Of a stretch of DNA of 64,000 bases, positions 6,805 to 60,248 are shown in pieces (the first letter of the stretch is position 1; each line of letters begins with the position of its first letter). The notes beneath the pieces were generated by a model. It worked only from the letters and a program-made list of their open reading frames with translations, had not been told where the DNA came from and made no database searches. Position numbers and translations under genes: made by a program. The stretch is from an archaeon. Its GTDB lineage: Archaea; Nanobdellota; Nanobdellia; Pacearchaeales; GW2011-AR1. The stretch covers positions 27,082-91,081 of the forward strand of contig JAZDPV010000018.1 in NCBI GenBank assembly GCA_043797265.1. Direction: 5' to 3'.

Positions 6805-7205
6805 ATTTGGCTAAGCGAAAAGAGTTGGCGGCGAAAGTTTTTGGGGTCGGGAAAGGCCGGATTATTTTTGTGAAAGATAATTTACCTGAAATTAAAGAGG
6901 CGATTACGCGGATGGATATTATTGATTTGCATAAATCGGGAGCAATTAAAATTAGAGAGATTAGGGGACGGAAGAAAATTGTGAGAAGGCGACATAGAAG
7001 AAGAGTTGGAAAAGTTAAAGGGAAGGTTAGTGATAAGAAGGCGGAGTATGTGATAATCACGAGGAAGTTGCGGAAGTTTGTGAGAGGATTGGTGAGGGCG
7101 GGAAAAATTAAGAGAGAGAGAAGCGGGGAAATTCGGAAAGAGATTCGAGCGCGGAAGTTCAAGAGCAAAAGACATCTTAAAGAAATTTTGGAGGAAGGGG
7201 AATGA
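6801..7205 (+). CDS. rpl19e: 50S ribosomal protein L19e
   Basis: LAAKVFGVGKGRI, IKEAITR.DI, FKSKRHL. Confidence 0.93.
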   Translation: MNLAKRKELAAKVFGVGKGRIIFVKDNLPEIKEAITRMDIIDLHKSGAIKIREIRGRKKIVRRRHRRRVGKVKGKVSDKKAEYVIITRKLRKFVRGLVRAGKIKRERSGEIRKEIRARKFKSKRHLKEILEEGE

Positions 7206-7279
7206 AAGTTTTGGCGGGGCTTTGCCCGAGGTTGTTTGGCGGCGGAAGGAATTTAAATGATGGTTTGAGGGGATTGTGA
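7202..7279 (+). other. Bridging mini-ORF (25 aa) between rpl19e and rpl18
   Basis: ATGA at 5' end, TGATG at 3' end; MKVLAGLCPRLFGGGRNLNDGLRGL*; GGGC-TTT-GCCC hairpin. Confidence 0.6.
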
Positions 7280-8605: not shown

Positions 8606-8679
8606 AAATCGTAGATTTTCATGGTGATAATCGTTTTGCGATTGGATGTATGACTTTGTCATGGGTGGTTGTGAGATGA
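8602..8679 (+). other. Bridging mini-ORF (25 aa) with three triloop hairpins between rps5 and rpl30
   Basis: ATGA overlaps at both ends; MKIVDFHGDNRFAIGCMTLSWVVVR*; ATGAAAATC-GTA-GATTTTCAT. Confidence 0.62.
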
Positions 8680-9017
8680 TATTGGTCGTGAGGATTGCGG
8701 GGCAGGCGAGGAAGAAGGCGAAGGATAGTGAGACCTTGAGGCGGTTGAGGTTGGGAAAGAAGTTTAGTTGTATTCTTGTCGACGAGAAAGATGATGTGAG
8801 GATAGGGATGGTGCGAGCGGTGGGATACATGGTTGCTTACGGGAAAGTTGAGGACGATTTTGTGAAAGAGTTGAAGAAGATGCGGAAAGACAAGGATGGG
8901 GTTTATTTTTTGCATCCGCCTCGAGGTGGGTTTAAGAAGAGTTCGAAAGTTGCGACGCCGAAGGGAATCCTTGGGAAAAATGAAGATATCACTAAATTAG
9001 TGGAGAGGATGTTATGA
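8676..9017 (+). CDS. rpl30: 50S ribosomal protein L30
   Basis: VVRIAG, TLRRLRL, LHPPRGGF, LVERML. Confidence 0.93.
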   Translation: MILVVRIAGQARKKAKDSETLRRLRLGKKFSCILVDEKDDVRIGMVRAVGYMVAYGKVEDDFVKELKKMRKDKDGVYFLHPPRGGFKKSSKVATPKGILGKNEDITKLVERML

Positions 9018-9118
9018 AAAAATCGGGGATTTTTTCGGGCGTTAGGTTGCTTCGCTTGTGGGTGTTGGGTCACTTCGCTTGTGGGAACTTGAGTAACATT
9101 GCGGGAGTATTAAGATGA
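9014..9118 (+). other. Bridging mini-ORF (34 aa) between rpl30 and rpl15
   Basis: ATGA overlaps at both ends; hairpin GAAAAAATC-GGG-GATTTTTTC; CTTCGCTTGTGGG twice with 23-bp period. Confidence 0.62.
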
Positions 9119-9611: not shown

Positions 9612-10988
9612 ATGGGCTTAAAATGGTTATTGCATAATTTGCCTGAGGTTCGGGCGCCGACGGAGAAGAAGGTTAGTTTTAATGTTAAATTGAAATGGAC
9701 ACTGGTTATTTTGGTTGGGTTTTTTGTTCTTTGCAATATTCCGTTGTTTGGCATTACAGAGAGTGCGTTGTCGCGGTTTGAGTATTTGGCGATTTTGTTG
9801 GGAACGGATTTTGGTTCGATTATTTCGCTGGGTATTGGGCCTATCGTCATGGCTTCGATTATTTTGCAATTGTTGAATGGAGCGGGGATTTTGAATATTG
9901 ATACGAATACCGACGAGGGCAAGAAGTTTTTTCAGGGGGTGCAGAAATTGCTGGTTTTTGCGTTTGTGATTTTTGAGTCGATGGTTTATGTTTTGATGAG
10001 AGGGATTGCGGCCGAACCGGGTTTTGCGGGGCTTGTTATTTTTCAATTGATTATCGGGGGGCTCTTGATTGTTTTTATGGACGAGGTTGTGCAGAAGTGG
10101 GGCTTTGGTTCGGGGGTTAGTTTGTTTATTGCGGCCGGGATTGGGTGGAGATTGTTTGCTCAGTTGTTCCAGTTTATCGGGCCGACTGGGGCGTTTGAGG
10201 CGACTGGTAAAGTTTTAGCGATTGTTGCCGCGATTATTTCTGGAGGGGCTGGGACGGGGACTGAGGTTTTGAGAAATTTATTTCCGATTATTGCTACTGC
10301 TGTTTTGTTTTTGGCGGTTGTGTTTGCGCAGAGTTTGAAGGTCGAGATTCCGCTGGCGTTTGACAGGATTCGCGGGCATTCGGTAAAGTGGCCGCTGCAA
10401 TTTTTTTATGCGGGGGTTATTCCGGTGATTTTGGTTTCGGCTTTGGTTGCTAATTTGCAGTTGTTTGCGTCGCTGTTGCAGAATTGGCTGGGGCACGCGA
10501 CTTTCCTCGGTGGATTTAGTTCGGGCGGGCAGGCAATTTCGGGTTTGTCTTTTTGGGTTCACTCTACTCCTATTTTGGAGACAATTATCACCGGGAGTTT
10601 TAGATGGATTTATGCCGGGCAGGCGGTGGTTCATATTTTGTTTTATACTTTGTTTTCGATTGTGTTTTCTTTCTTTTGGGTCGGGACTTCAGGGATGGAC
10701 GCGAGGAGTCAGGCGAACAAGATTGTTCATTCTGGGATGAGCATGCCGGGGTTTAGGAAGGACGAGAGAGTTTTGGAATCGATTTTGAAAAGGTATGTGA
10801 CGCCGTTGACAGTGATGGGTGGTGCGGCGATTGGGCTTTTGGCATCGGTGGCGAACTTGCTTGGGGCGTTAGTTGGCGGGACGGCGATTCTTTTGGCGAT
10901 TATGATTTTGTATCAGTTGTATCAGAACATCGCGCAGCAGCATGCGGTCGACATGAATCCGGCGCTCAAGGGTTTCTTTGGTGCTTGA
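9612..10988 (+). CDS. secY: Preprotein translocase SecY
   Basis: LGIGPIVMASIILQLL, KWGFGSGVSLFIAAG, PGFR; about 10 TM segments. Confidence 0.97.
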   Translation: MGLKWLLHNLPEVRAPTEKKVSFNVKLKWTLVILVGFFVLCNIPLFGITESALSRFEYLAILLGTDFGSIISLGIGPIVMASIILQLLNGAGILNIDTNTDEGKKFFQGVQKLLVFAFVIFESMVYVLMRGIAAEPGFAGLVIFQLIIGGLLIVFMDEVVQKWGFGSGVSLFIAAGIGWRLFAQLFQFIGPTGAFEATGKVLAIVAAIISGGAGTGTEVLRNLFPIIATAVLFLAVVFAQSLKVEIPLAFDRIRGHSVKWPLQFFYAGVIPVILVSALVANLQLFASLLQNWLGHATFLGGFSSGGQAISGLSFWVHSTPILETIITGSFRWIYAGQAVVHILFYTLFSIVFSFFWVGTSGMDARSQANKIVHSGMSMPGFRKDERVLESILKRYVTPLTVMGGAAIGLLASVANLLGALVGGTAILLAIMILYQLYQNIAQQHAVDMNPALKGFFGA

Positions 10989-11108: not shown

Positions 11109-11474
11109 ATGTGGGATTATAAAAAACTTGATGTTTGGAAGAGGGCGATTGATTTGATTCCTGTTGTTTATGAGTTGACGAAGAAGTTCCCAAAGGAAGA
11201 GTTGTATGGACTTGTTTCTCAAATGAGGAGAGCGTTTGTTAGTGTTTCTGCGAATATAGCGGAAGGGTGTGGGAGAAGGACTGTTAAAGATTATGTTTCT
11301 TTTTTGTATAATGCTTTGGGGAGCGTGAAAGAAGTTGAGAGCGAGTTGTATGTTTGTGAAAAGTTGGGATATATTTCTGGGAATAAATTGGATGATTTAT
11401 TGAAAGAATTAGATGAGATTGGGAAAATGATTGTTGGTGTTATTAGTTATGTTTCTAGTAAAAATATTGAATAG
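11109..11474 (+). CDS. Four-helix-bundle protein (23S rRNA-IVP / Avd-like family)
   Basis: YKKLDVWKRA, FPKEELYGLVSQMRRA..SVSANIAEG.GR, ALGS..E. Confidence 0.9.
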   Translation: MWDYKKLDVWKRAIDLIPVVYELTKKFPKEELYGLVSQMRRAFVSVSANIAEGCGRRTVKDYVSFLYNALGSVKEVESELYVCEKLGYISGNKLDDLLKELDEIGKMIVGVISYVSSKNIE

Positions 11475-40135: not shown

Positions 40136-40819
40136 TTATATTTTTTTGATTTGTTTTAAATACTTTAATGCAACAAAACTTTTCCAGACTTTTTTCCAAG
40201 AATATTTGAAATCAGTGATTAATCTATATGCCCATTCTACTCCCAATCTTCTAAATATTGTTGGAGATTCTTTCTTCTTTTCTAGCAAGAAATCCATTGC
40301 TGCGCCCACGGTGAAATAGAATGTTGGGTATTTTTTATACAATTGATTTGCCAAAATCTCTTGTTTTGGATTTCCAATGCATATCCAAATATATTTTGGT
40401 TTTATTTTTTTTAATTTGTTTAGGATTGTTTTTTCTTCTTTTTTTGGAAAAATTATTTCTTTTATATATGGCGGATTGTGTGTTTGAGAATTTTTTAGTT
40501 TTGGGAATTTTTTTATTAATATTTTTAGGTCTCTTTCTGATGGTCCAATGAAGAAATGTTTTTGATTATTACTCAACTTCTTTTCAAAGAAATTTTTTGT
40601 GAAGGATGGTCCCCTGATTTGTTTTATCCGTAAAAATAAACTTATCGTTTTCCCGTCTGGAAAGATGAAATTATTTGGGGAGGTTATCGCTTTTTGAAAA
40701 ATTGGTTCATGATTGAATAGGTATATGGAATATAGATTTTGGAAATTTAAGATTCCATTTTTATTAGATCTCATAATTTCTTCTGGTGTTTTTTTTGTAA
40801 AAACTATTTGTTTTTTCAT
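40136..40819 (-). CDS. WecB/TagA/CpsF family glycosyltransferase
   Basis: PDG, GP, IGNPKQE, VGAAMDF, GVEWAYRL. Confidence 0.85.
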   Translation of the reverse strand: MKKQIVFTKKTPEEIMRSNKNGILNFQNLYSIYLFNHEPIFQKAITSPNNFIFPDGKTISLFLRIKQIRGPSFTKNFFEKKLSNNQKHFFIGPSERDLKILIKKFPKLKNSQTHNPPYIKEIIFPKKEEKTILNKLKKIKPKYIWICIGNPKQEILANQLYKKYPTFYFTVGAAMDFLLEKKKESPTIFRRLGVEWAYRLITDFKYSWKKVWKSFVALKYLKQIKKI

Positions 40820-46051: not shown

Positions 46052-46804
46052 ATGAGAGAGGCGAAAGAGGTAATTCGGTTAAGGGATGTTTCGAAATTTT
46101 ATCCGATGGGTGATTCGGTCGTGAAGGCGTTGAATGGGATTAATTTTAAGGTTTACGAGGGAGAGTTTGTCGCGATAATGGGACCGTCGGGTTCGGGAAA
46201 ATCGACCGCAATGAATTTGGTTGGGAGTTTGGATATGCCGACACACGGGACGATTTATTTGGATGGTGGGGATATTTCTGAGTTGAGTGAGTCTGATTTG
46301 GCGCAAATTCGGGGAAGGAAGATTGGTTTTATTTTTCAGTCGTTTAATCTGATTCCGAATTTGACGGTTAAAGAGAATGTGATGTTGCCGATGATGTTTC
46401 AGGGGGCGAGTATTGAGGAGCGGACGAGGAAGGCGGAGGAGTTGTTGAAGTTGGTTGAGTTAGGGGATAGAATGGACCATTATCCGGGAGAGATTTCTGG
46501 TGGGCAGATGCAGAGAGTTGCGATTGCGCGGAGTTTGGCGAATGACCCGGAAGTTATTCTTGCCGACGAGCCGACTGGGAATTTGGATAGTAAGACCGGG
46601 GCGATTGTTATGGATTTTTTGGAGAAGTTGCACAAACGGGGGAAGACAATTATTATGGTTACTCATGATCCGGATTTGGCCGAAGAGTATGCGGAGGTTG
46701 TTTACTGGTTGAAGGATGGGGCGCTGGAGAAAGTGACGAAGAGGGTTGGTAAGAATTTTGTTGATGTCACGAAGCGGAAGAAAGAAGCGCATGAGGTGAA
46801 GTGA
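46052..46804 (+). CDS. MacB/LolD-type ABC transporter ATP-binding protein
   Basis: GPSGSGKST, ISGGQMQRVAIAR, LADEPTGNLD, VTHD. Confidence 0.95.
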   Translation: MREAKEVIRLRDVSKFYPMGDSVVKALNGINFKVYEGEFVAIMGPSGSGKSTAMNLVGSLDMPTHGTIYLDGGDISELSESDLAQIRGRKIGFIFQSFNLIPNLTVKENVMLPMMFQGASIEERTRKAEELLKLVELGDRMDHYPGEISGGQMQRVAIARSLANDPEVILADEPTGNLDSKTGAIVMDFLEKLHKRGKTIIMVTHDPDLAEEYAEVVYWLKDGALEKVTKRVGKNFVDVTKRKKEAHEVK

Positions 46805-48021
46805 TGAATCTTGATTATTTGATTCTTGCATTGAAGAATTTGAAGCATCGGGGGATTCGGTCGTGGCTGACTTTGCTCGGGATTTTTATTGGAGTGACGG
46901 CGGTTGTTTCTTTAATGAGTCTGGGGGCCGGGTTACAGGCGGCGGTTGGGGCTCAGTTTGGTATTAGTTCGACGCAAGCATTAACTATTCAGGCTGGGGG
47001 GTTGAATTCTTTTGGTCCTCCTGGGAGCGGGGCTGTGAATCCATTGACGAGAGAGGATGCGATGGCTATAGAAAAATTAAGCGCTGTAGAATTTGCGACG
47101 CCGAGAAATATTGAGACGATTAAAATAGAATTTAATGACAAGATTGTTATTGGGAATGCTTTAAGTGTTGACGATAATAGGGAGCAAGAAATGTATGAGA
47201 CTATGGGTTTAGAAGCGGCGCAGGGGAGAATGCTTCAATCGGGAGATTTGGGGAAAGTGATTATTGGAAGCAGCCTCGCTGATGGTGGGAAAAATGGATT
47301 TGATGAAGATATTGTCCCGGGTAAAACTATTTTAGTTCAGGATGAAAAATTTAAGGTGATAGGTATTCTTAAAAAAATGGGGAGTTTTACTATTGATGGA
47401 ATTGTTTTCATGTATGATGATGATTTGAATGGCTTGATGAATTATGGCGACGAGGTTGATATTATTGGCGTGAAGGTGAAAGATAAAGATTTGATGGACA
47501 AGGCGGTTGAAGAAATTAGTAAGTTGTTGAGGGAGAGGCGTGATGTTAAAGTTGGCGAGGAGGATTTTGAAATATCCACACCGGAATCGATGTTGGAAAC
47601 TGTGAATAGTATTCTTGGCGGGGTTCAAGCTTTTATTATTATTATAGCGTCGATTTCGATTTTGGTCGGGGTGATCGGAATTGTTAATACGATGACGACT
47701 TCGGTTTTGGAGAGGCGGAAAGAAATTGGAATTATGAAAGCGATTGGCGCAAGAAATAGCCAGGTGTTTATGCAATTTTTTTTTGAGTCGGGAATGCTTG
47801 GGTTAATAGGAGGATTGGTTGGTGTTGTTTTGGGGACGTTGGTCGGAGTCGTTGGGGTTATGAGTATTAATAGTTTTCTTGGAGCGGAACTTTCTCCGAT
47901 GATTGATTTTGTATTGATAGGCGGAGCGTTGGCTGGAAGTTTTGTGATTGGTGCCGTTGCTGGAATTGTGCCCGCGATGAATGCTGCTAAACAAAATCCG
48001 GTGGAGGCGCTGAGGGGATGA
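46804..48021 (+). CDS. MacB/FtsX-like ABC permease
   Basis: RSWLTLLGIFIG, SVLERRKEIGIMKAIGA, PVEALR. Confidence 0.93.
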   Translation: MNLDYLILALKNLKHRGIRSWLTLLGIFIGVTAVVSLMSLGAGLQAAVGAQFGISSTQALTIQAGGLNSFGPPGSGAVNPLTREDAMAIEKLSAVEFATPRNIETIKIEFNDKIVIGNALSVDDNREQEMYETMGLEAAQGRMLQSGDLGKVIIGSSLADGGKNGFDEDIVPGKTILVQDEKFKVIGILKKMGSFTIDGIVFMYDDDLNGLMNYGDEVDIIGVKVKDKDLMDKAVEEISKLLRERRDVKVGEEDFEISTPESMLETVNSILGGVQAFIIIIASISILVGVIGIVNTMTTSVLERRKEIGIMKAIGARNSQVFMQFFFESGMLGLIGGLVGVVLGTLVGVVGVMSINSFLGAELSPMIDFVLIGGALAGSFVIGAVAGIVPAMNAAKQNPVEALRG

Positions 48022-48131
48022 AATCTTTGATTTTATCCTCAAGGGTATTGGGGCGCTTTGCTTGTTGGTATTGGGGCGCTTTGCTTGTTGGTGATTTAAG
48101 TAACTTGAGGATACTGAAAAATGGTGATTAG
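48018..48131 (+). other. Bridging mini-ORF (37 aa) between the two permeases
   Basis: ATGA overlap; MKSLILSSRVLGRFACWYWGALLVGDLSNLRILKNGD*; stop overlaps ATG 48121; 2 x 23-bp tandem 48044-48089. Confidence 0.6.
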
Positions 48132-49332
48132 AAAAGAGAGTGTGAAGTATTCGTTGAATAATATTTGGAAGAGTAAGGCGAGGAGTATCCTTACTGTTTT
48201 GTCGATTTTTGTCGGGATTGCTACGATTTTTATTTTTGTTAGTTTCGGGTGGGGACTTTATGATTATGTCGATGAGTTTACTTCTTCGTCTTCGGCAGAT
48301 AAGTTGATGATTATGCCAAAAGGGGTTGGGGCTCCAGGGCTGGATAATACATTTAAACTTTTAGATAATGATTTGCGGGCGATTGAAAACACGCCGGGAG
48401 TTTACGAAGCGACTGGGGTATATATGGGCGTCGGGGAAGTTGTACAAAATGATTTGAGGAAGTATGTTTTTGTTACGAGTTATGACCCGGATTTGCCGTT
48501 GGTTATGGAGATTTCTAATATTGATGTGATTGAGGGGCGCGCTCTTCGTGCTGGGGATTCTGGGAAGGTTACGCTTGGATATAATTATTTAGTTAAGAAT
48601 AAAATTTTTCCAAAGGCGTATGCTCTTAATAGCAAGATTGAGGTGCAGGGACAAGAGCTTCGGATTATTGGGTTTTATGAATCTGTTGGTAACCCTCAGG
48701 ATGATTCTAATATTTATGTTACTAATGATTTTATGGCGGAGCTTTATCCTGAAAAGAATCTTTCTTATGGGATGATTCTCGCGCGGGCAGACAAGGACAA
48801 TGTCGATGAGGTTGGGACAAGAGTTGAAAAAAAATTAAGGCAAGAGAGAGGTTTGGACGAGGGAAAAGAAGATTTTACCGTTGATTCGTTTGCTAGTTTA
48901 TTGGAATCTTATATGATTGTTTTGGATATTATTATTGGGTTTATTCTTTTGATTGCGTTTATTTCAATTATTGTGTCGGCGGTTAATACTGCGAACACAA
49001 TGATTACGTCGGTGCTGGAAAGGTTTAAGGAGATTGGGGTTTTGAAATCTATTGGCGCTCGGAATTCTGAGATTTTTAAAATATTTTTATTTGAGTCTGG
49101 GTTTCTTGGATTTGTTGCTGGCGTTATTGGGGTTTTGGCTGGATGGGGTGCGACAAATTTAGGGGCGAGAGTTTTGGATAATCTTGGATATGGTTTTCTT
49201 AGTCCGCATTATTCTTGGACTTTGTTTGTTGGATGTATTTTATTTGCGACGCTGACTGGGGCGATTTCTGGAGTTGTGCCGGCGTGGAGAGCGAGCAAGA
49301 TTAATGCCGTGGATGCGTTGAGATATGAGTAG
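48121..49332 (+). CDS. MacB/FtsX-like ABC permease
   Basis: RSILTVLSIFVG, SVLERFKEIGVLKSIGA, DALRYE. Confidence 0.93.
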   Translation: MVIRKESVKYSLNNIWKSKARSILTVLSIFVGIATIFIFVSFGWGLYDYVDEFTSSSSADKLMIMPKGVGAPGLDNTFKLLDNDLRAIENTPGVYEATGVYMGVGEVVQNDLRKYVFVTSYDPDLPLVMEISNIDVIEGRALRAGDSGKVTLGYNYLVKNKIFPKAYALNSKIEVQGQELRIIGFYESVGNPQDDSNIYVTNDFMAELYPEKNLSYGMILARADKDNVDEVGTRVEKKLRQERGLDEGKEDFTVDSFASLLESYMIVLDIIIGFILLIAFISIIVSAVNTANTMITSVLERFKEIGVLKSIGARNSEIFKIFLFESGFLGFVAGVIGVLAGWGATNLGARVLDNLGYGFLSPHYSWTLFVGCILFATLTGAISGVVPAWRASKINAVDALRYE

Positions 49333-49334
49333 AA

Positions 49335-50168
49335 TTATTTTTTGTTTTTGGATTTTTTTCGTCTCTTGTAAACCCAATAAACAATGCCCACGATTATTAT
49401 AATTGAAACGATGTATGTCCAGATTGACGTTGTTGATTGGTCGGCTTTTCGGTCTGTGAAATATGCTGAATCGAAAGTTATTGTTTTTGTGATGGTTCGT
49501 CGCACGTTTATCGCGTCGGAATATGTTAACTCTAATGTTATTTCTCCGTCGGATGGAATTGCTTCGAAATCTGCTGTCGTGTATTCATTTGAATCGAGGT
49601 CCCCGACGATGTTCCGGCTTGCGCCTTTTATTATTATATTTTCTTGTTTTGGTATTTCGATTGTCAGAGCTTCGATGTTGGATTCTTTGACATTTAAAAT
49701 TTCTAATGTTAATTCGTTTGTTGTGTAGTCATAGTTTTTGATGCTTACTTCGAAATCTGCTCGGACGTCTTCGATTTCGAGATTAAACGTTGCTATTTGC
49801 GGAGCGTCTCCTTTGTTTTGCATTTTGGCTTCGATTGGGTTCGCGCCGTTAAGCGCTTCCGGGTCGACTCTCACTTCATATGGGACCAATATGCTTGATT
49901 GATAGTTTCTAATGTAATCTGTTTGGTCAAATTTTCTTAGACCTAATTCGCCTGGGTTGAATTTTATTGGATAGTTTTCGAGGAGGTTGAATGTTATGTC
50001 GTTGCAATCCGCGCCGTTTATTCCTTCGATTTGGAAAACGAGTTTGACGTAGTCGCCGGGAACGGCTGGGTATGGATCTTGATTAAGCAGCGTTGTTGTT
50101 AAATCGCATGCTGCCGACGCTATTGTTAATGATAGCATTAGTAAAATTGGTATTGCTCTTTTTTTCAT
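49335..50168 (-). CDS. Secreted COG1361/S-layer-like protein with C-terminal TM anchor
   Basis: Signal peptide, QDPYPAVPGDYV, IVGDLDS, C-terminal TM + KRRKK. Confidence 0.65.
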   Translation of the reverse strand: MKKRAIPILLMLSLTIASAACDLTTTLLNQDPYPAVPGDYVKLVFQIEGINGADCNDITFNLLENYPIKFNPGELGLRKFDQTDYIRNYQSSILVPYEVRVDPEALNGANPIEAKMQNKGDAPQIATFNLEIEDVRADFEVSIKNYDYTTNELTLEILNVKESNIEALTIEIPKQENIIIKGASRNIVGDLDSNEYTTADFEAIPSDGEITLELTYSDAINVRRTITKTITFDSAYFTDRKADQSTTSIWTYIVSIIIIVGIVYWVYKRRKKSKNKK

Positions 50169-50299
50169 TGTGATATTTATCAAAGTTTATATTTAAGGTT
50201 TGTGATTATTATTTGTATGTAAAAATTTAAAAAGCATATTCGACAGGGAGATGACTAAGTAAGTTGAAGACTTTGGTTTTCATTTTACTAAGTAAAAAG

Positions 50300-50596
50300 A
50301 TGGTGAAGAAATGTATTTATTGTTCTGCGAAGATTAATGATGGTTCGGTCGTGGATATGTGCGATGGGTGCATGTATCAGGTTTGGGGGGAGAAGATGGC
50401 GAGGGCGATTGTTGAGAATATGGAAAAGGAAAGGGTAAAAGGGAATTTAAATCTGGGAAATGTCGGTGGGATATTGGGTGCTGGGCGAATTGGCGAGGCT
50501 GGAAGAAATTTTAGGGAATCTCTCCCGGAGATTAAGGTTGAAGAAATTGACGCCGAAGATGCGCGGGATGGGTTTGTTTTTGAGAAAGGTTTTTAA
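50300..50596 (+). CDS. Hypothetical zinc-finger protein
   Basis: CIYC...CDGC..VWGEKM. Confidence 0.55.
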
Positions 50597-50667
50597 ATGA
50601 GATTTTTGTTGGGTTGTTAGGATAGAAATGTCCGAGTGTTACAGCGAATGGTTCTGTAATTTTTAAA

Positions 50668-50919
50668 ATGGCGAGGCTGAGAAAACATGTTAGAGAGAAT
50701 GGGAAGGTAAGGCTTAGTGGGTACTTTAAAAAATTTGATGACGGGAGCAGAGTTGGGGTTGTGATGGATTGTGGAGTTCGGGCTTCGTTCCCGAGGAGAT
50801 TGCGCGGGATGAGTGGAGAAGTCGCCGGGAGCCGTGGGAATTTTAAATTAATTAAAATAAAGGACGGGAACAAACTGAAAACCTTTGTTATTCATCCTGT
50901 TCATTTGAGGAAGTTGTAA
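50668..50919 (+). CDS. rpl21e: 50S ribosomal protein L21e
   Basis: G..G.V.GSRG, IKDGNK.K.FVIHPVHL; precedes rpoF. Confidence 0.88.
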   Translation: MARLRKHVRENGKVRLSGYFKKFDDGSRVGVVMDCGVRASFPRRLRGMSGEVAGSRGNFKLIKIKDGNKLKTFVIHPVHLRKL

Positions 50920-51225
50920 ATGGCGGTGAAAGAAGAGACGCCGATTACTTTGGCTGAAGTTGTGGCTTCTGTTGGAGATTCTGATAAAGCCGTTGCTATC
51001 AAAAAATTTATTAAAGATTTTAATAGGATGAACATCGAGAAAGCGAGAGAGATAAGGGGCGCATTGAAGGGACTTGATTTGATTAAACTTAAAGATGAGC
51101 ATATTGTAAAAATTGTTGATTTTATGCCGAGTGATGCGACCGAGTTAAATAAAGTTCTTGTAGAAGTTTCGCTGGACGGGGAAGAAGTAACTAAAATTCT
51201 GGAAGTTGTGAAAAACTTCAAATAG
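50920..51225 (+). CDS. rpoF: RNA polymerase subunit F (Rpo4)
   Basis: PITLAEV, KIVDFMP...EL; L21e-rpoF-DUF655 synteny. Confidence 0.85.
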   Translation: MAVKEETPITLAEVVASVGDSDKAVAIKKFIKDFNRMNIEKAREIRGALKGLDLIKLKDEHIVKIVDFMPSDATELNKVLVEVSLDGEEVTKILEVVKNFK

Positions 51226-51234
51226 GCGATGGTG

Positions 51235-51360
51235 AAAGTAACATTAGAAATGTTTCATGTAGTCGCTTGCCCAGCCGTGGAGGTGGAAAATGACTAAAGT
51301 AACATTAGAAATGTTTCATGTAGTCGTTTGTCCAATTGCGGAGGTGGAAAATGACTAAAG
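51235..51360 (+). repeat. 61-bp tandem duplication carrying two 22-aa bridging mini-ORFs (51229-51297, 51290-51358)
   Basis: AAAGTAACATTAGAAATGTTTCATGTAGTCG...GGAGGTGGAAAATGACT twice. Confidence 0.85.
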
Positions 51361-51887
51361 AAGAGCATGCAATTATTTTAGATTTTTTACCTTATGGTTA
51401 TCCATTGGATAAAAAAATGATGCCGTTGGCTCAGGCGATTGGAGTGGCTGGGCTCACGCTTTTACAATTAGTGCCTCGACGCGGGGAACGATTTGAAATC
51501 GGGGAGAAGGTTTATATCGGCGAGGGGAAGCGAGACAAGGTGCAATATATTCTTGGCAGATGTCCTCGGGAAAAGTTGACTGAGACGGCGAAGGTTCAAT
51601 TGGAAAGTTTTGTTGAGGAAATTGTTAAAGGTAATGAAGAAAGATTTGTGAAATTTTTTAATGAAGCACAAGCTATAAATACCCGACTTCACCAGTTTGA
51701 GTTGCTTCCTGGACTTGGGAAAAAGCATACCAAGGCGATTCTTGATGCCCGTGGCGAGAAGATGTTTGAATCTTTTGATGATATTAAGAAGCGAGTTTAT
51801 AATATGCCGGTGCCGGGGAAAATTATTGAGAAAAGAATTATGGAGGAATTGACAGAAATGCAAAGACATAATCTGTTTGTATTTTGA
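51351..51887 (+). CDS. DUF655 family RNA-binding protein
   Basis: ILDFLP.G, AQAIG, VYIG.G.R.K, RLHQFELLPGLGKK. Confidence 0.9.
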   Translation: MTKEEHAIILDFLPYGYPLDKKMMPLAQAIGVAGLTLLQLVPRRGERFEIGEKVYIGEGKRDKVQYILGRCPREKLTETAKVQLESFVEEIVKGNEERFVKFFNEAQAINTRLHQFELLPGLGKKHTKAILDARGEKMFESFDDIKKRVYNMPVPGKIIEKRIMEELTEMQRHNLFVF

Positions 51888-52381
51888 TGGAAGAAAAGAA
51901 AAAATTTGAGAAGAAAGAGAAAGACGATGTTATACTGGTTAGAGTGCTCGGGCGGGATATTCGTGGAGATATTAAGTTGAGTTCTGCTTTGACGAAAATT
52001 AAGGGAATTTCTTGGATGTTTTCTAACGCTGTTTGTAAGATTTTGGACATGGATAAAAACAAAAGAATTCAAGATTTTGACAAGAAGGAACTGGCAAGGA
52101 TTGAAGAATTTATGAAGAGTCCTGACGTGCCGGGGTTTTTGAAAAATCGGCGGAAGGATTTTGACGACGGGAAAGACAGACATATTAGCGGCGTTGATTT
52201 GAAGCTGAGAACTGAGTTTGATGTGAAGAGACTGAGAAAAATTCGTTCTTATCGCGGGGGAAGGCATGCTGTGAATTTGCCGGTTAGGGGACAAAAAACA
52301 AGGTCGCATTTTAGACATAATAGGAAACCGTCTGTTGCGAGTGCTAAAAAAAATAGAAAACAGGATGGGAGTTCTAAATGA
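51887..52381 (+). CDS. rps13: 30S ribosomal protein S13
   Basis: LTKIKGI, NRRKD, YRG.RH..NLPVRGQKTRS. Confidence 0.96.
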   Translation: MEEKKKFEKKEKDDVILVRVLGRDIRGDIKLSSALTKIKGISWMFSNAVCKILDMDKNKRIQDFDKKELARIEEFMKSPDVPGFLKNRRKDFDDGKDRHISGVDLKLRTEFDVKRLRKIRSYRGGRHAVNLPVRGQKTRSHFRHNRKPSVASAKKNRKQDGSSK

Positions 52382-52422
52382 TTAAATTTTTTGGGAGGAT
52401 GATTTCTGATGGGCGATATTAA
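52378..52422 (+). other. Bridging mini-ORF (14 aa) between rps13 and rps4
   Basis: ATGA overlap; MIKFFGRMISDGRY*; stop overlaps S4 ATG 52409. Confidence 0.45.
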
Positions 52423-52927
52423 GAAAAAACGGAAGTTGTTTAGCCGGCCAAAGAAACCGTTTGATAGAGCAAGGATGGATGAGGAGAATGTTTTGATAAA
52501 AAAATATGGATTGAAAAATAAGCGTGAGATTTGGAAAGCAAAAAGCGCTGTGTCGAAATTCAGACGGAGAGCGAAGGATTTAATTGGGGAGGACGCTGGG
52601 GAGCAACAGATTTTTTTTGATAAGTTGAACAGGATGGGATTTAATGTCCATAGTATCGCTGACGTTTTGGCTTTGACTGAAGAAAATTTATTTGAGAGAA
52701 GATTGCAGACTTTTTTGTTCAAGAAAAAAATGGCGAACACCGCAAGACAGGCGAGGCAGTTAATTGTTCATAAAAACGTTTTGGTCGACGGGAAAACTGT
52801 GAATATACCTTCCTTTGTTGTGACAAAAGAATTTGAGGGAAAAATTGCTGTTAGACCTAAACGAGAAAAACAAGAAAAGAAAGTGGATGAAACCAGAGGG
52901 GAGGTTGTTAAAGATGGCGAAGAGTGA
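52409..52927 (+). CDS. rps4: 30S ribosomal protein S4
   Basis: MGD, YGLKNKREIW, ERRLQT, ARQLIVH. Confidence 0.96.
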   Translation: MGDIKKKRKLFSRPKKPFDRARMDEENVLIKKYGLKNKREIWKAKSAVSKFRRRAKDLIGEDAGEQQIFFDKLNRMGFNVHSIADVLALTEENLFERRLQTFLFKKKMANTARQARQLIVHKNVLVDGKTVNIPSFVVTKEFEGKIAVRPKREKQEKKVDETRGEVVKDGEE

Positions 52928-53300
52928 GGAGAATGTTGGGATATTGAGTATTTATGCGAGTTTTAATAATACAATTGCGACGATGACAGATTTGGCGGGG
53001 AACACGATTGGGCGGGTTTCCGGCGGACAGATTACGAAGCATGATAGAATGAGGGCAAACCCGACGATTGCGATGTTTATTGCGAAAAGGATACAGGATG
53101 TTTGTCGAGATTATAAGATTAAGGATTTGTATGTGAGGATGAAGGGGCAGACGGGAGCGAGCGGGATTGGGCCGGGGGCGCATGCGATTGTTAAGACATT
53201 AACAAAAGAAGGATTTAGGATTTTGAGTATTACTGAGACGACTGCTGTTCCTCGTGGCGGGCCGAAGAAGAAGGGCGGGAGAAGAGGGAGGCGAGTTTAA
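52914..53300 (+). CDS. rps11: 30S ribosomal protein S11
   Basis: IYASFNNT..TDL.G, GPGA, GGRRGRRV. Confidence 0.96.
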   Translation: MAKSEENVGILSIYASFNNTIATMTDLAGNTIGRVSGGQITKHDRMRANPTIAMFIAKRIQDVCRDYKIKDLYVRMKGQTGASGIGPGAHAIVKTLTKEGFRILSITETTAVPRGGPKKKGGRRGRRV

Positions 53301-53410
53301 TGAAATCAAAGATTTTATTATGGTGGTCTGCATTTGGTCTTCGGTGGCTGGAGATAAATAACAAGTATAAATTTATAAATTGGGAAATGGATGGAACGAT
53401 ATGGAAATGA
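53300..53410 (+). other. Bridging mini-ORF (36 aa) between rps11 and rpoD
   Basis: TAATG overlap; MKSKILLWWSAFGLRWLEINNKYKFINWEMDGTIWK*; TGA overlaps ATG 53407; hairpin AATGAAATC-AAA-GATTTTATT. Confidence 0.6.
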
Positions 53411-54108
53411 TTGAGAATAGCGACGAGAGAATGGTTTTTGTTGGTGATGTCGATGTGAGTTTGGCGAATGCGATTCGGAGAAGCGTGGGAGAAATCCCGA
53501 TTTTGGCGATTGACGAATGTGATATTTACAAAAATGATTCGGCGCTTTATGATGAAATTATTGCTCATCGGCTTGGGCTTGTAAGCTTGAAGAACCAGAA
53601 GATGAAGTCGGGGCAGAGTGTTGAAATGAAGATGAAAGCAAAAGGGAAAGGTGATGGGATTGAAGTTATGGCTGGGCTGCTTGGTGATGATATTATTTAT
53701 CCTGAGACCCCGATTGTTTTGCTTGGGGACAAACAAGAGCTTGAGTTGGTTGCGAGGGCTAAAGCCGGGAAGGGGAATGAGCATGCGAAGTTTATGCCGG
53801 GGGTTATTTTTTATAAGCATTTGCCGAAGATTAAAGTTTCGGGTGAGGGGGAAAAGCATAGTGAGTTAGCGAATTTATATCCTGATGTTTTTGAAATGTT
53901 TGGGGATAAATTAAGGGTTAAGAATGCTGCGGCCTGTGATTTTGACGACGAGGACATGAAAAATTATCCTGGGGTTAATATTGAGTTTGGCGACGATTTG
54001 GTTTTTATGATTGAATCGTGGGGGCAGATTGGAGTTAAGGATGTTTTTATTGAAGCATGTAAGGCTTTGAAAGGAAATCTTTCTGAAGTCTTGAAAGTAG
54101 TTAAATAA
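53401..54108 (+). CDS. rpoD: RNA polymerase subunit D (Rpo3)
   Basis: ANAIRR, NDSALYDEIIAHRLGL, EHAKF, ESWGQ; start 53401 or 53407. Confidence 0.95.
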   Translation: MEMIENSDERMVFVGDVDVSLANAIRRSVGEIPILAIDECDIYKNDSALYDEIIAHRLGLVSLKNQKMKSGQSVEMKMKAKGKGDGIEVMAGLLGDDIIYPETPIVLLGDKQELELVARAKAGKGNEHAKFMPGVIFYKHLPKIKVSGEGEKHSELANLYPDVFEMFGDKLRVKNAAACDFDDEDMKNYPGVNIEFGDDLVFMIESWGQIGVKDVFIEACKALKGNLSEVLKVVK

Positions 54109-54147
54109 GTGTTGGATATTTTATCTAATATTTTGTCCGCGGGTAGT

Positions 54148-54230
54148 GAGGAAATGCCGGAGTGGTCAAACGGGGCGCGTTAAGGGCGCGTTGGCTTATG
54201 CCTGCGGGGGTTCGAATCCTCCTTTCCTCA
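54148..54230 (+). tRNA. tRNA-Leu with AAG anticodon
   Basis: Colinear with tRNA-Leu(CAA); anticodon arm GCGCG-TTAAGGG-CGCGT. Confidence 0.85.
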
Positions 54231-54393
54231 TATGGACGGAGAATTCGAAACACGGGGTTCGATACCCCTTCGGGGCACGAGGACCTGCGAGCAGGTACCC
54301 CTTCGGGGCACGAGGACCTGCGAGCAGGTACCCCTTCGGGGCACGAGGACCTCTTCGAGGATCCTCTTTTCCTCATATGGACGGAGAATTCGA
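54216..54393 (+). repeat. 33-bp direct repeats (tRNA 3' end + flank) enclosing 2.7 x 33-bp hairpin tandem repeat
   Basis: ATCCTCYTTTCCTCATATGGACGGAGAATTCGA at 54216 and 54361; unit TACCCCTTCGGGGCACGAGGACCTGCGAGCAGG at 54263, 54296, 54329 (partial). Confidence 0.9.
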
Positions 54394-54402
54394 TAAAACA
54401 AA

Positions 54403-54765
54403 ATGGAAATAAAAATAAGTAAAACAAAAATTGAGAAGCGAATGAAACGCAAAATGGATGTTTCGTTAGTTGAAACTATAATTAGGTTGAAGAAAACGAA
54501 CCCCGTCGTGGCGAAAGAGTTGGCGCGGCCGAAGCGTCGGTGGCCTGCTGTGAATTTGAAAGATATTGATATGGTCAAGGGCGATGTGTTAATTGTGGGA
54601 AAAGTTTTGAGTGCGGGGGATTTGAGTGGGGCGAAGAAGATTGTGGCATGGGCGGCGTCGGGGAAAGCGCTTGAGAAAATAAAGGGAGTGAAGGGAAGTT
54701 TTGTTACGATTGTTGACGAGATGAAAAAGAATCCTGAATTAAATGGTTTTGATATTTTGAGATAA
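54403..54765 (+). CDS. rpl18e: 50S ribosomal protein L18e
   Basis: LARPKRR..VNL..I, VGKVLSAG, SGKALEKI. Confidence 0.9.
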   Translation: MEIKISKTKIEKRMKRKMDVSLVETIIRLKKTNPVVAKELARPKRRWPAVNLKDIDMVKGDVLIVGKVLSAGDLSGAKKIVAWAASGKALEKIKGVKGSFVTIVDEMKKNPELNGFDILR

Positions 54766-54986
54766 TGGGAGAGGTAGAATATTCTGGGATTGTGCAGGTG
54801 AGGGCGCGAGATGGGGATGTTACAAATTATTTTTTTCATGATTATCCTTCGTTCATTTTTGCGGCTGATTTTGGGAATGAACCTTGTGGGGAAGAGAGAA
54901 GGTCTTGTTTAGAGGATGGCCTAGTGCCAGAAAAATTATTGGAACAATATGTTGAAATTAGCAGATGGAGGAAGTGGGGGGAATGA
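54765..54986 (+). CDS. 73-aa orphan ORF bridging rpl18e and rpl13
   Basis: TAATG overlap at 5' end and ATGA overlap at 3' end; no recognisable family. Confidence 0.6.
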   Translation: MGEVEYSGIVQVRARDGDVTNYFFHDYPSFIFAADFGNEPCGEERRSCLEDGLVPEKLLEQYVEISRWRKWGE

Positions 54987-55396
54987 TAAAAATAATTTAT
55001 GATGGCGAGGGTTGTGTTTTTGGTAGGTTGGCGTCGGTGGTTGCTAAGGATTTGTTGAAGGGGGATTTTGTTGATGTGATTAATTGTGAGAGGGTTGTTA
55101 TTTCGGGGGACAAGAAATTATTTGTTGAGAAAATTTTAGCGAAGAGGAGAATGGGGAGTGGTGGTTCATTGAAGGGACCGAAATATATTCGGCAATCGGA
55201 CAGATTGGTTAAGAGGATGATTCGTGGGATGTTGCCGTGGGACCGGGCGAGGGGGCGCGGGGCATTTAAGAGATTGAGATGTTATGTTGGGGATGGTGGC
55301 TTGAAAGATGAGGATTTGAAAAATATTGTTAAATTAAGCCACAAGAAGCCGATGAAATATTTTGCGATTAAAGAAGCCATGGAGTTGTTGAAATGA
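54983..55396 (+). CDS. rpl13: 50S ribosomal protein L13
   Basis: GRLASVVAK, NCE..VISG, RMIRGMLP..RGR.A..RL. Confidence 0.96.
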   Translation: MIKIIYDGEGCVFGRLASVVAKDLLKGDFVDVINCERVVISGDKKLFVEKILAKRRMGSGGSLKGPKYIRQSDRLVKRMIRGMLPWDRARGRGAFKRLRCYVGDGGLKDEDLKNIVKLSHKKPMKYFAIKEAMELLK

Positions 55397-55797
55397 TGGA
55401 TAAAATTATTGTTTCGGGGAAGAGGAAGACTGCGATTGCGAAGGCGACGATTGAAGCGGGTGATGGGGTTGTAACTTTTAATAAGAGGCCGTTGAATTTT
55501 TTGACAGAGATGCAGAGGTTGGAGATTAGTGAGCCGTTAATTATTGCGAAGAATGTTCTTGGAAGTTTAAATTTTAATATTGCCTTGAATGTTAAGGGTG
55601 GTGGTATAGAGTGTCAAGTTGAGGCTGGGCGGTTGGCGATTGCGAAGGCGATTGTGAAATTTGTTGGGAACGAAAATCTTAGAAATGCTTTTTTGGCTTA
55701 TGATAGAAACATGTTGGTTGCCGATACCCGACGGAAAGAGACATGTAAACCCGGGGATTCGAAGGCGAGGGCGATGAGGCAGACGAGTTTCCGTTGA
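55393..55797 (+). CDS. rps9: 30S ribosomal protein S9
   Basis: SGKRKTAIA, VKGGG, YDR.MLV.D.R.KE, QTSFR. Confidence 0.96.
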   Translation: MMDKIIVSGKRKTAIAKATIEAGDGVVTFNKRPLNFLTEMQRLEISEPLIIAKNVLGSLNFNIALNVKGGGIECQVEAGRLAIAKAIVKFVGNENLRNAFLAYDRNMLVADTRRKETCKPGDSKARAMRQTSFR

Positions 55798-55818: not shown

Positions 55819-56367
55819 TTAAGATGGGGCTTGGCTTTTTTTTCTCGGTCTTAGATAAGTTTTAAGTTTTCTTTGGACGGCATAGAAAATTTCTGGCGAG
55901 ATGAGTGGTTGATGGTCGGCTTTGTGAATTTTGCCATCGAATTTTATTTCGCCGAGATAGGTCCGGTTTGTGAGGACTTTTTTTAAACCGTTAATTGAAA
56001 GTGAAAAATTTTTTGCGAGAGAATTGAGGGAGTAATTTCTGGCAAGGAATGTTTTAAAGAGAGAATGAACTCGGATTGCGTTTTCATTTGGGATTAGGTT
56101 TCCGTTTGTAACATCGTAGCCAAGTGGTGCTCTTGTTACTAATTTACCGACGCTGGCCATTTTTTGCATCCCTTGTTTTTGTTTCTGCCCTTTTGACTGA
56201 TTGTATTTTCTGAATGTGTCGAGTTTTTCCCAATCAATTTTTTCTGAGATATAATTTTGGAAATCGTATATTTTTTCTGGTGCGAACGCTGCACAAATCC
56301 CGCATAATGGGCTTCCGAATATTGTTTTTTCTTTTTTGTCGATGTAGCCACATTTTTTGCAGGTCAT
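55819..56367 (-). CDS. Zinc finger + serine-recombinase-type DNA-binding domain protein (no catalytic domain)
   Basis: CKKC..CGIC; APLGY, LTNRTYLG, HQPLIS.EIF..VQ. Confidence 0.7.
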   Translation of the reverse strand: MTCKKCGYIDKKEKTIFGSPLCGICAAFAPEKIYDFQNYISEKIDWEKLDTFRKYNQSKGQKQKQGMQKMASVGKLVTRAPLGYDVTNGNLIPNENAIRVHSLFKTFLARNYSLNSLAKNFSLSINGLKKVLTNRTYLGEIKFDGKIHKADHQPLISPEIFYAVQRKLKTYLRPRKKSQAPS

Positions 56368-59202: not shown

Positions 59203-59679
59203 TTATTGATTATTGGGGTTATAAAAAAGAAGTTTTTCATCGATTGGTGTGTCAAATCCTTTTTCTTTGAGAATTTGGAAAATTTCGTTACGGAAATTGA
59301 GATTATGAATCATGCGATGATGATTGGGGCAAAGGCCTATAAGGTTTTTTGGGGAATTATTTTTTTTATTGGTGTCTATATGGTGTATGTCGACGATTTT
59401 GTCAAAGTCGCAAATAGCACATTGTTTCGTAACTTTCCTAAAAGTTTTAAGGTCTATATTATTTTTTTTGCGCTGATTATATGCTTTGTTTTTATCGAGG
59501 TGAAAAATGTAGTTATAGCAGCCAGCGCAAAAATTTTTGGCATGGATGTTGATTTTCCGTTTACATCGTCTGCATATTGCAAATTTTGGTTGCCATTTGA
59601 TTTTTTTATAACAAGTGTAGCAAAGCCCCTTGGCGTGATGTTCTTTTTCTTGATTGCAATTGATGCATTTTTTTATCAT
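59203..59679 (-). CDS. HNH endonuclease with N-terminal zinc-finger repeats
   Basis: CINC..HHAKGLCYTCY repeat; CAIC..DIHHID..NN..NL..LCPNHH..IH. Confidence 0.82.
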   Translation of the reverse strand: MIKKCINCNQEKEHHAKGLCYTCYKKIKWQPKFAICRRCKRKINIHAKNFCAGCYNYIFHLDKNKAYNQRKKNNIDLKTFRKVTKQCAICDFDKIVDIHHIDTNKKNNSPKNLIGLCPNHHRMIHNLNFRNEIFQILKEKGFDTPIDEKLLFYNPNNQ

Positions 59680-59751
59680 GTTAAAAAATAGCGTTCGTAC
59701 ATTAAAAACCTTGTGCAAACGGGTTTTTTTCGTTCGTTTTATTATGTAAGA

Positions 59752-59779
59752 ACGGCGTACAATGTATATTATGCGAACT
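59752..59779. promoter_or_regulatory. dif-like Xer recombination site
   Basis: ACGGCGTACAA-TGTATA-TTATGCGAACT: 11-6-11 layout, same 6-bp core as E. coli dif, 1.2 kb from xerA. Confidence 0.6.
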
Positions 59780-59825
59780 TATGGGAAATTTATGGAGAAT
59801 TAATAATTTTGATTTTAAATTGAGA

Positions 59826-60248
59826 AGAAATCTACATCCTTGAAGATGTAGTCTTCCTGATAAGTATTTATTTCTAAACACTTTGTTTTTTATATCGATA
59901 TAAAATGTTTTGGGAGCCAGAGAACGCAAAACTTCTTAAAGCTTGCACTCGACGTTCAGCGACGAGAAACGAAATAAAAATAATCGAATTGAATGTTCAG
60001 CCCGAGCATGTTCATTGTATTGTTCTTATAAAATTCAGTGTTTCAGTGTCGAGAATTTTACAGATTTTAAAGAGCGGTTCTTCGAAATTGTTTTTTGAGC
60101 ACAAAAAAATAAGACTTCAATATCCTCGAGGGCATTTGTGGAGCAGGAGGAAATTTGCGAGTTCTGTTGGATTTGTGCAACTTGACGTCGTGAAGGACTA
60201 TGTTAGAAATCAGTAGGAAACTCCACGCTTTAGTGTGGAGAGTATGTC
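59826..60248 (+). mobile_element. tnpA: IS200/IS605-family remnant with 5'-truncated tnpA (59905-60216)
   Basis: YRYKMF, PEHVH (HUH), LW, VKDYVRNQ; hairpins CTACATC-CTTGAA-GATGTAG (59832-59851) and CTCCACGC-TTTA-GTGTGGAG (60221-60240); ends approximate. Confidence 0.8.

Follow-up and report, generated by a model that had tools for sequence, protein, structure and literature searches.

The window analysed here is a stretch of 64,000 nucleotides (nt) from an archaeal genome of the lineage Pacearchaeales (positions 27082-91081 of contig C18 in the 625-kb, 18-contig assembly G000). Several junctions between its operon genes are occupied by short open reading frames (mini-ORFs), which begin at the stop codon of the upstream gene and end at the start codon of the downstream gene. 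An ORF was counted as bridging when its ATG lies within 3 nt of the upstream stop and its frame is open to the downstream start. The flanking genes were identified by Pfam. An ABC ATPase gene and two FtsX/MacB permease genes lie at 46052-49332, and the gene order around the other mini-ORFs is L21e, rpoF, DUF655, S13, S4, S11, rpoD, L18e, a 73-amino acid (aa) ORF, L13 and S9. The spacers which carry inserts are of two kinds, class A with modular repeats of 40-190 nt and class B with orphan ORFs of 54-140 aa. All the mini-ORFs given below, which an earlier note on this DNA had pointed out, are present in the ORF list, and their stop/start geometry was read on the sequence.

48018-48131, plus strand, 37-aa bridging ORF in a class A insert between the two FtsX/MacB permease genes
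51229-51297, plus strand, 22-aa ORF, the first unit of a tandem pair (family 1, 61 nt per unit) between rpoF and DUF655
51290-51358, plus strand, 22-aa ORF, second family-1 unit between rpoF and DUF655
52378-52422, plus strand, 14-aa ORF across the 27-nt S13-S4 spacer
53300-53410, plus strand, 36-aa ORF in a class A insert between S11 and rpoD
54765-54986, plus strand, 73-aa orphan ORF (orf73), class B insert between L18e and L13
50628-50666, plus strand, 12-aa ORF before L21e, weak case, not counted as bridging
54377-54412, plus strand, 11-aa ORF overlapping the L18e start, weak case, not bridging

The note had described coupling at both ends of these ORFs. This was confirmed at five junctions, and the two weak cases were found to lack the 5' coupling. 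At the 5' end, the ATG overlaps the upstream stop as ATGA at 48018 (TGA of the first FtsX permease) and 52378 (S13) and as TAATG at 53300 (S11) and 54765 (L18e), and at 51229 it lies 3 nt past the TAG of rpoF. At the 3' end, ATGA joins the ORF to the start of rpoD (53407) and of L13 (54983). The others run 5-11 nt beyond the downstream start: the permease ORF ends in a TAG 8 nt beyond the second permease ATG (48121), the two 22-aa ORFs in a TAA 5 nt beyond the ATG of the second unit and the real DUF655 ATG (51351), respectively, and the 14-aa ORF, which includes the Shine-Dalgarno (SD) sequence of S4 (GGGAGGA), 11 nt beyond the S4 ATG (52409). The permease insert is composed of a hairpin over the upstream stop (GGGGATGAAATC ttt GATTTTATCCTC; fold z = -2.9), a perfect 23-nt tandem repeat at 48044-48092 (x2.1, 100%, Tandem Repeats Finder) and GAGGA 9 nt 5' of the second permease ATG. 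The same program found a repeat of 61 nt (x2.1, 90%) at 51229-51358, the two 22-aa ORFs being copies of one unit. The first unit has the hairpin AACATTagaAATGTT at 51240-51254. Each unit terminates in GGAGGTGGAAA and a copy of the DUF655 start, ATGACTAAAG, and GGAGGTGG stands 5 nt before the ATG at 51351. A hairpin, TAATGAAATC aaa GATTTTATTA, is also present at the S11-rpoD junction (53298-53320). Of the weak cases, the 12-aa ORF ends 1 nt before the L21e ATG, but it starts 32 nt after the upstream stop. A 7-aa ORF (50597-50620) directly follows that stop (TAAATG) and is separated from the 12-aa ORF by a gap of 7 nt; the two tiny ORFs in series (50597-50666) may be chance or a degenerate relay from one ORF to the next. 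The 11-aa ORF lies in a duplicated segment behind tRNA-Leu (54147-54231) with no gene stop at its 5' end. tRNA-Leu occupies the rpoD-L18e spacer in eight genomes, none of which has an ATG at the stop.

Besides G000 the genus comprises 48 genomes, among them G023, of which 539 kb were used. Three operon sets were compared: S19-EMC3 in G000 and 20 genus genomes, with orthologues placed by tblastn; L21e-S9 in G000 and 11 genomes of the same genus (65-81% DNA identity); and the permease pair in 27 evaluable genus genomes. The first 12 kb of the window carry S19-L22-S3-L29-SUI1-S17-(orf68)-L14-L24-S4e-L5-S14-S8-L6-L32e-L19e-L18-S5-L30-L15-SecY, with the following inserted ORFs.

2694-2900, orf68, class B
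3288-3431, plus strand, 47-aa ORF across the 126-nt L14-L24 insert of four hairpins
59-169, 2630-2707, 5450-5503, 7202-7279, 8602-8679 and 9014-9118, further bridging examples of this first operon

The guess of the earlier note that the genes overlap directly in relatives was borne out in all three sets. In the S19-EMC3 table of 21 genomes, most junctions lie between -20 and +2 nt, and the inserts are patchy and unrelated in sequence between genomes. G023, for instance, has overlaps at L14-L24 and L19e-L18 and a 1-nt spacer at the junction occupied by 59-169 in G000. Similarly, rpoF-DUF655, S13-S4, S4-S11 and L18e-L13 overlap or are 1-7 nt apart in most genomes compared, and inserts at the L21e-S9 junctions occur in some genomes only and fall into recurring types. 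The spacer is below 25 nt in 8 of 12 genomes at S13-S4, where three of the four spacers of at least 25 nt are bridged, and in 6 of 10 genomes at L18e-L13. The permease junction is tight (-4 to +1) in 15 of the 27 genomes and expanded in 12. On these comparisons the inserts are derived states.

Most of these inserts carry an ORF of the same geometry. Counting internal inserts of 25-520 nt and leaving out six in-frame N-terminal extensions, the S19-EMC3 set holds 49 inserts. An ATG lies within 3 nt of the stop in 44, and its frame bridges the insert in 40, as against 7 of 88 for the other two frames. By hand count ~29 of the 40 end within -4 to +1 of the end of the start codon, and inserts of up to 360 nt of complex, non-repetitive sequence are bridged too. 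In two of the four unbridged inserts with an ATG, a further inserted ORF comes after a class A mini-ORF, which makes a relay in series. The 18 internal inserts of the L21e-S9 set include 14 with such an ATG and 11 bridged (other frames open in 6 of 28), and the rpoF-DUF655 junctions of G000 and G023 are two-ORF relays with the ATG 4 nt from the stop. Among the 12 expanded permease junctions, eight have a single bridging ORF of at least six different sequence types, and in a ninth (G008) a mini-ORF is relayed into an inserted gene. The remaining three are unbridged, and two of these hold a 23S-rRNA-IVP gene cassette. When the three operons were pooled, 83 inserts at 21 junction types formed 70 sequence clusters, of which 47 are bridged throughout, 4 mixed, 13 unbridged and 6 in-frame extensions. 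By instance, 57 of the 83 are bridged, 12 have an ATG but are unbridged (four of the pooled unbridged cases being two ORFs in series), 7 have no ATG and 7 are extensions. The 23S-rRNA-IVP genes (PF05635, bAvd-like; 11109-11474 of the window, and L184, L204 and L052 in relatives) form cassettes at junctions that differ between genomes, namely SecY-EMC3 and, in G023 and G015, the permease pair. Short TAG-rich repeats (TTAGC / GTAGT) stand before them, and no ORF bridges them.

The scan was extended to the rest of the genome. G000 has 342 same-strand junctions with spacers of 25-300 nt, and in 65 of them an ATG stands no more than 3 nt from the upstream stop. The ATG frame is open in 29 of the 65, compared with 20 of 130 for the other two frames (Fisher p=1.9e-5), and 300 shuffles gave 9.8 +/- 2.7 with a maximum of 19. 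Spacers of 61-300 nt are bridged in 6 of 17 cases inside the window and 11 of 222 outside it. Outside the window the ATG frame is open in 11 of 37 cases against 7 of 74 for the other frames (p=0.012), a count of 11 being reached in none of 500 shuffles. At the frame level, ATG-anchored frames are open in 11 of 29 cases and start-less frames in 32 of 343 (p=1e-4). G023 gave 13/39 against 24/340 at the frame level (p=1.2e-5) and 14/41 against 8/82 for the other frames (p=0.002), or 9/34 against 6/68 after removal of its two ribosomal-operon contigs. Outside the window, spacers of 25-60 nt are without enrichment (3/11 vs 10/22). GTG/TTG-anchored frames are not enriched in G000 (5/72) and weakly so in G023 (12/77). 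The L21e-S9 operon of five genomes from other families of the order is mostly tight and has few spacers, which are A-rich and in no case bridged. The genome-wide effect is real but rare. The suggestion of the earlier note that the behaviour probably applies to coupled junctions across the genome is too broad in view of the 11 of 222 spacers, of the short spacers and of the other families. That it is not specific to ribosomal proteins was upheld by the permease junction and by the 11 bridged junctions outside the window, which include rpoH-rpoB, a gene before a KH-domain (NusA-like) protein, S12, S28e and gyrB, a restriction-modification pair (PD-(D/E)XK nuclease and Eco57I-type methylase) and an AP-endonuclease-like gene with an IVP gene. 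Out of 181 gene adjacencies conserved between G000 and G023, 24 are tight in one genome and at least 25 nt apart in the other; four of these are bridged (three in the ribosomal operon and one by a 37-aa hydrophobic ORF) and two are in-frame extensions.

We consider it reasonably probable that the mini-ORFs are relay ORFs, which preserve translational coupling in lineage-specific inserts of ancestrally overlapping, coupled junctions. Each surviving insert begins with an ATG that overlaps the upstream stop or stands beside it (ATGA, TAATG or TAAnATG). As an insert begins at the upstream stop, its ATG would sit at the former start of the downstream gene, occupying the ancestral initiation site behind the SD-like purine run that ends the upstream gene. 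The frame stays free of stops up to one which overlaps or abuts the relocated downstream start, usually provided with its own GGAGG. A ribosome ending the upstream gene would restart on the mini-ORF, translate through the insert while melting its hairpins, terminate at the downstream start and restart there. Coupling could in this way survive inserts that otherwise leave 40-500 untranslated bases between the genes, and frame-less inserts would be purged by selection where coupling matters most, namely at genes for ribosomal proteins, RNA polymerase and the transporter. In H. volcanii and E. coli, termination-reinitiation coupling is almost lost at a distance of ~20 nt (Huber et al. 2023, PMC10666635). 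The selective logic of a relay is plausible because of this strong dependence on distance, by which an unbridged insert would uncouple its genes. We infer that the mini-ORFs are translated, that ribosomes reinitiate on them, and that selection rather than the design of the inserted elements keeps them open. Among the sequencing runs listed for 50600-55400 there was none of RNA, and the DNA runs had shares of 0.10 or less. Read-through of the upstream stops or an alternative genetic code was also considered and dropped, because the upstream proteins end where those of relatives end.

Class A inserts are modular: a hairpin covers the upstream stop, tandem repeats rich in GT make up the body, and an SD stands ahead of the ATG. 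Two families were distinguished. Family 1 (~56-61 nt) combines a duplicated gene start with the hairpin AACATTrrAAATGTTTCAT, a stretch of ~12 nt and a GGAGG before AAAATG. Inserts of family 2 (~80-190 nt) open with (A)TGAAA(A)TCnnnGA(T)TTTCAT, which covers the upstream stop, and run through short tandem repeats rich in GT to an SD at the end; the family includes 48018-48131, 53300-53410 and a copy at window position 59. The hairpin motif ATGAAATCnnnGATTTyAT is matched without mismatch at 59, 48018 and 53300. Similar modules are also present on contigs C2, C12 and C16 and in relatives. Another spacer module, TACCCTCAC, ~25 nt and GGTTGGGGCA, recurs in several junction inserts of G050, G024 and G046 (L052, L187, L047); none was seen in the window of G000.

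Each family-1 unit carries a copy of the downstream gene's first 7-10 nt, ATG included, and similar duplications were observed at tRNA genes. On contig C2 (~10579-10760, minus strand), tRNA-Val has two family-1 hairpin modules in tandem on its upstream side, and the first 14 nt of the tRNA are repeated before each of them. Compensatory changes are seen in the stem of the second module, and directly before the real gene lies a stretch that is complementary to the 5' end of tRNA-Val. A comparable arrangement stands before a tRNA-like sequence on C16 (~40470-40560) and on contig C25 of G023. Because the module also duplicates tRNA starts, the family-1 ATG is best read as a duplicated gene start. 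This bears on the quite unlikely explanation that the ORFs are a by-product of the origin and composition of the inserts, arising without selection for translation, the ATG being the old start codon or a target duplication and the GT-rich, A-poor repeats holding few stops. The copied gene and tRNA starts and the G/T richness of class A repeats would be expected if so, as would GGATGA, common to all insert-bearing permease junctions. It would also agree with the lack of a coding signature in class A ORFs. In a same-strand frame-discrimination score, held-out long genes reach 0.36 per codon and the small ribosomal genes of the window 0.30 (ORF frame best in 10/10), while class A ORFs have no coding periodicity (-0.01 per codon, ORF frame best in 5/10). 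However, such an origin leaves the excess of open ATG frames over the other frames in the S19-EMC3, L21e-S9 and genome-wide counts to be explained. Composition-preserving shuffles never attain the observed counts, GTG/TTG-anchored frames are unenriched in G000, and the complex, non-repetitive inserts of up to 360 nt are bridged as well. The orthologous class A inserts of G000 and G023 also speak against it, since both are bridged although only the 5' hairpin is kept and the tandem repeats are wholly different; at rpoF-DUF655, G023 has two diverged units at the same site with both ORFs open. For these class A pairs the pooled ratio of nonsynonymous to synonymous substitution rates (dN/dS) is 0.39 vs 0.64 and 0.83 in the shifted frames, from a small sample of 73 codons, and 25 of 59 differences fall at third positions, with one pair probably misaligned.

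Hairpins which enclose the stop, with stems of 8-14 bp and triloops, are predicted by folding at many junctions. A hairpin of at least 6 bp was found at 64 of 380 junctions and at 5% of control positions inside genes, and the stems vary in sequence among copies with pairing kept. Three spacers have fold z-scores of -2.9, -3.35 and -2.15. These data would fit inserts that are structured RNA or DNA elements with an incidental ORF, such as 3'-end processing or stability hairpins, protein-binding repeats or mobile palindromes of the repetitive extragenic palindrome (REP) type. We hold this to be very unlikely as the whole explanation, because structure leaves the lack of stops in one particular frame unexplained; it is compatible with the relay reading and does not exclude it. 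For two of the five class A spacers folded, the predicted structure is no more stable than that of shuffled sequences (z -0.5, -0.6), and at Rfam gathering thresholds the spacers were unmatched, the only matches in the window being tRNAs and 5S rRNA. The strict co-orientation of the motifs with the genes is a further point for structured elements. Tandem CACGGAyyA motifs occur directly 5' of T-runs and SDs (3830-3856 and 5166-5188, and on C2, C12 and C16). The paired motif was counted 28 times in G000 and 15 times in G023, always sense and never antisense; it may be a protein-binding or translation-control site.

REP and REPIN elements with their REP-associated tyrosine transposases (RAYTs), and the Rickettsia palindromic elements, are dispersed palindromes tolerated in compact genomes. 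The archaeal inserts resemble them as palindromic repeats that disrupt neither expression nor reading frames, and differ in lying between genes, in being defined by an ORF which bridges two cistrons and in having no consistent Y1 transposase partner. G000 possesses one N-terminally degenerate IS200-type Y1 transposase gene in the window (59878-60213, PF01797, E=2.9e-23, HVH motif kept), which favours mobile palindromes, and no TnpB. A Y1 transposase (PF01797) was found in only 12 of the 49 genus genomes and in none of the element-carrying G023, G019, G050 and G046, although with genomes 69-100% complete its absence from any one is unproven. A REP/RAYT system was dropped as the general explanation because of this inconsistent distribution, several element-rich genomes being without the gene. 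No transposition mechanism or partner enzyme was found for the inserts, whose presence/absence polymorphism is clear. The Y1 gene itself is housed in a low-GC island (59203-60241) together with an HNH-like zinc-finger ORF (59203-59718, minus strand), and the hairpin upstream of it, CTACATCcttgaaGATGTAG (~59833-59852), resembles that of family 1.

Class B inserts are non-repetitive ORFs of 54-140 aa and raise the question of coding function. One insert, at the permease junction, is a 140-aa GNAT acetyltransferase gene coupled at both ends. The L30-L15 ORFs of three genomes (~100 aa) have a common CGxGCAR N-terminus and 28-35% identity. The class B orphans of relatives show a weak coding signature (mean frame score 0.13, ORF frame best in 21/26). 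The score is 0.36 for orf68 and 0.15 for orf73, the latter between genes (0.30) and class A (-0.01). Since all genes of these operons overlap likewise, the ORFs, or at least longer ones such as 54765-54986, could be functional small proteins recruited to highly expressed operons, with the start/stop overlaps being the normal gene packing of this genome. We regard this as improbable. No Pfam family above the curated cut-off was obtained for 30 of 31 class B ORFs, and class A ORFs are low-complexity repeat translations without a coding signature. For orf73 there is no Pfam family, the only match among 5.8 billion protein clusters is orf73 itself, and a tblastn scan of the genome contigs gave no relative. 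The L18e-L13 junctions of G023 and G015 have ORFs of 64 and 79 aa, again coupled at both ends, which share 22-31% identity with orf73 over many gaps; at the DNA level orf73 cannot be aligned with G023. Its Atlas model is of low confidence (predicted local distance difference test, pLDDT, 0.42; predicted template modelling score, pTM, 0.27) and matches no feature. Between G000 and G056, orf68 is 40% identical with the frame intact in both genomes and a dN/dS of 0.87, as compared with 0.03-0.35 for 20 flanking genes (L29 and EMC3 excluded, their dS not being computable).

A possible, if doubtful, extension of the relay reading is that the inserts are kept open for coupling while their peptides drift freely, and that class A inserts grow into class B, making the junctions a gene nursery. 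Class B ORFs would then be expressed at ribosomal-protein levels from birth and some of them later captured for a function, the L30-L15 family with its CGxGCAR motif being one putative captured example.

Promoter junctions gave the contrast to the internal ones. L15-SecY, SecY-IVP, SecY-EMC3 and IVP-EMC3 have a promoter-like box ~25 nt ahead of the start codon. Of 30 such junctions, 25 show a TATA-like motif, as against none of the 49 internal inserts of S19-EMC3; 6 of the 30 have an ATG at the stop and 1 is bridged. At S11-rpoD, a TATA-like motif occurs in 10 of 12 genomes and the junction is bridged in G000 only, where the ORF runs through a TATA-like box (~53364-53378) ~25 nt before the rpoD start; as this is a promoter junction, its bridging may be incidental. 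The TATA motif was also tried as a genome-wide divider (bridging in 3/50 junctions with it and 22/292 without, p=1) and rejected, because it is too loose outside curated junctions.

Several points weigh against the relay reading. Most inserts have a good SD before the downstream ATG, which could allow de novo initiation and so make coupling unnecessary. Class A elements start with (A)TGAAA(A)TC at many sites, so the ATG of the mini-ORF may be built into the element rather than selected, and the family-1 module duplicates 14 nt of tRNA starts, where no ORF is at stake. The 14-aa ORF at 52378-52422 is by itself within chance, frames of 25-60 nt spacers being open 37% of the time, and the S11-rpoD ORF crosses the promoter-like box of rpoD, which is probably leaderless and should not need coupling. 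Outside the window only 5% of the 61-300 nt spacers have a bridging ORF, and 18 of the 24 expanded G000/G023 junctions have no ATG at the stop and are unbridged. The genome-wide counts depend on a home-made gene caller trained on G-rich ORFs and blind to genes of the C-rich strand. The promoter and internal classes of junctions were drawn post hoc with the sequences already seen, and the genomes of one genus are non-independent samples.

Comparable arrangements were sought among known systems. The review PMC12548453, after Supply et al. 1997, describes mycobacterial interspersed repetitive units (MIRUs) as insertions into start codons whose ORF shows coupling at -4 nt. To the extent of that account, both kinds are short repeated units, often in tandem, between co-directional operon genes; both appear to insert at start codons and carry a co-oriented ORF that is coupled to the neighbouring genes at its ends, which is read as a low-impact mode of insertion. 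Repeated units, a co-directional position in operons and a co-oriented ORF coupled at both ends were all found here. The archaeal inserts belong to another domain of life, and the likeness claimed is one of function; a sequence relationship to MIRUs is not expected. They differ further in being modular and heterogeneous (stop-codon hairpin, changing GT-rich repeats, CACGGA repeats, SD), in turning over between species ~77% identical in protein sequence, in forming a continuum with non-repetitive orphan ORFs of up to ~140 aa, and in their concentration in ribosomal-protein operons. Termination-reinitiation coupling at overlapping gene pairs is treated by Huber et al. 2019 (PMC6728339) and Huber et al. 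2023, and the -4 (ATGA) and -1 (TAATG/TGATG) overlaps recur at both ends of the mini-ORFs. The known cases join two real genes, whereas here an apparently product-less third ORF, sometimes two in series, stands between them. Leader ORFs of IncB-type rep genes (cited in PMC12548453) and synthetic coupling cassettes are examples of short upstream ORFs that supply a coupled gene with ribosomes. By analogy, the only role of the short ORF in both settings may be to bring a terminating ribosome to the next start; the leaders use their own ribosome-binding site at the 5' end of the transcript, whereas the mini-ORFs are also coupled upstream. A literature search found no description of such elements in Pacearchaeota or DPANN archaea, which does not exclude that one exists. 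Relative to the MIRU kind, the novelty lies in archaeal, modular elements of fast turnover in information-processing operons, grading into proto-gene-like orphans.

If the relay reading is true, the inserts would be an archaeal, independently evolved counterpart of MIRUs. They suggest a general rule by which only DNA with a relay reading frame may enter a tightly coupled operon, obeyed by ~50 independent insert types in ribosomal and transporter operons and not by promoter junctions, and hence a natural experiment on the weight of termination-reinitiation coupling in vivo. They would offer a plausible, testable route to de novo gene birth. They also call for caution in annotation, as dozens of 'hypothetical small proteins' in DPANN ribosomal operons may be product-less bridges.

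Some other features of the genome were observed. The two strands are extremely asymmetric: the GC skew has a magnitude of 0.29-0.53 on every G000 contig and one sign along the window, and the G023 contigs are alike; the five genomes from other families of the order range from -0.14 to +0.10. In G000, 705 of 707 called genes lie on the G-rich strand and the contigs look unidirectional, as counted with a gene caller biased to G-rich ORFs. One of the very few candidate genes opposite to the general direction is a 182-aa ORF at 55819-56367 (minus, C-rich strand) with a weak match to the Recombinase domain (PF07508, E=1.1e-6). Behind tRNA-Leu(AAG), a perfect 33-nt tandem repeat (x2.7, Tandem Repeats Finder) occupies 54263-54352, and the tRNA-Leu 3' end together with CATATGGACGGAGAATTCGA forms a direct repeat (~54217-54249 and ~54362-54394). 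These repeats could be an integration scar or an intron-like remnant, and partial tRNA duplicates are found in the rpoD-L18e spacer of G022 and G011.

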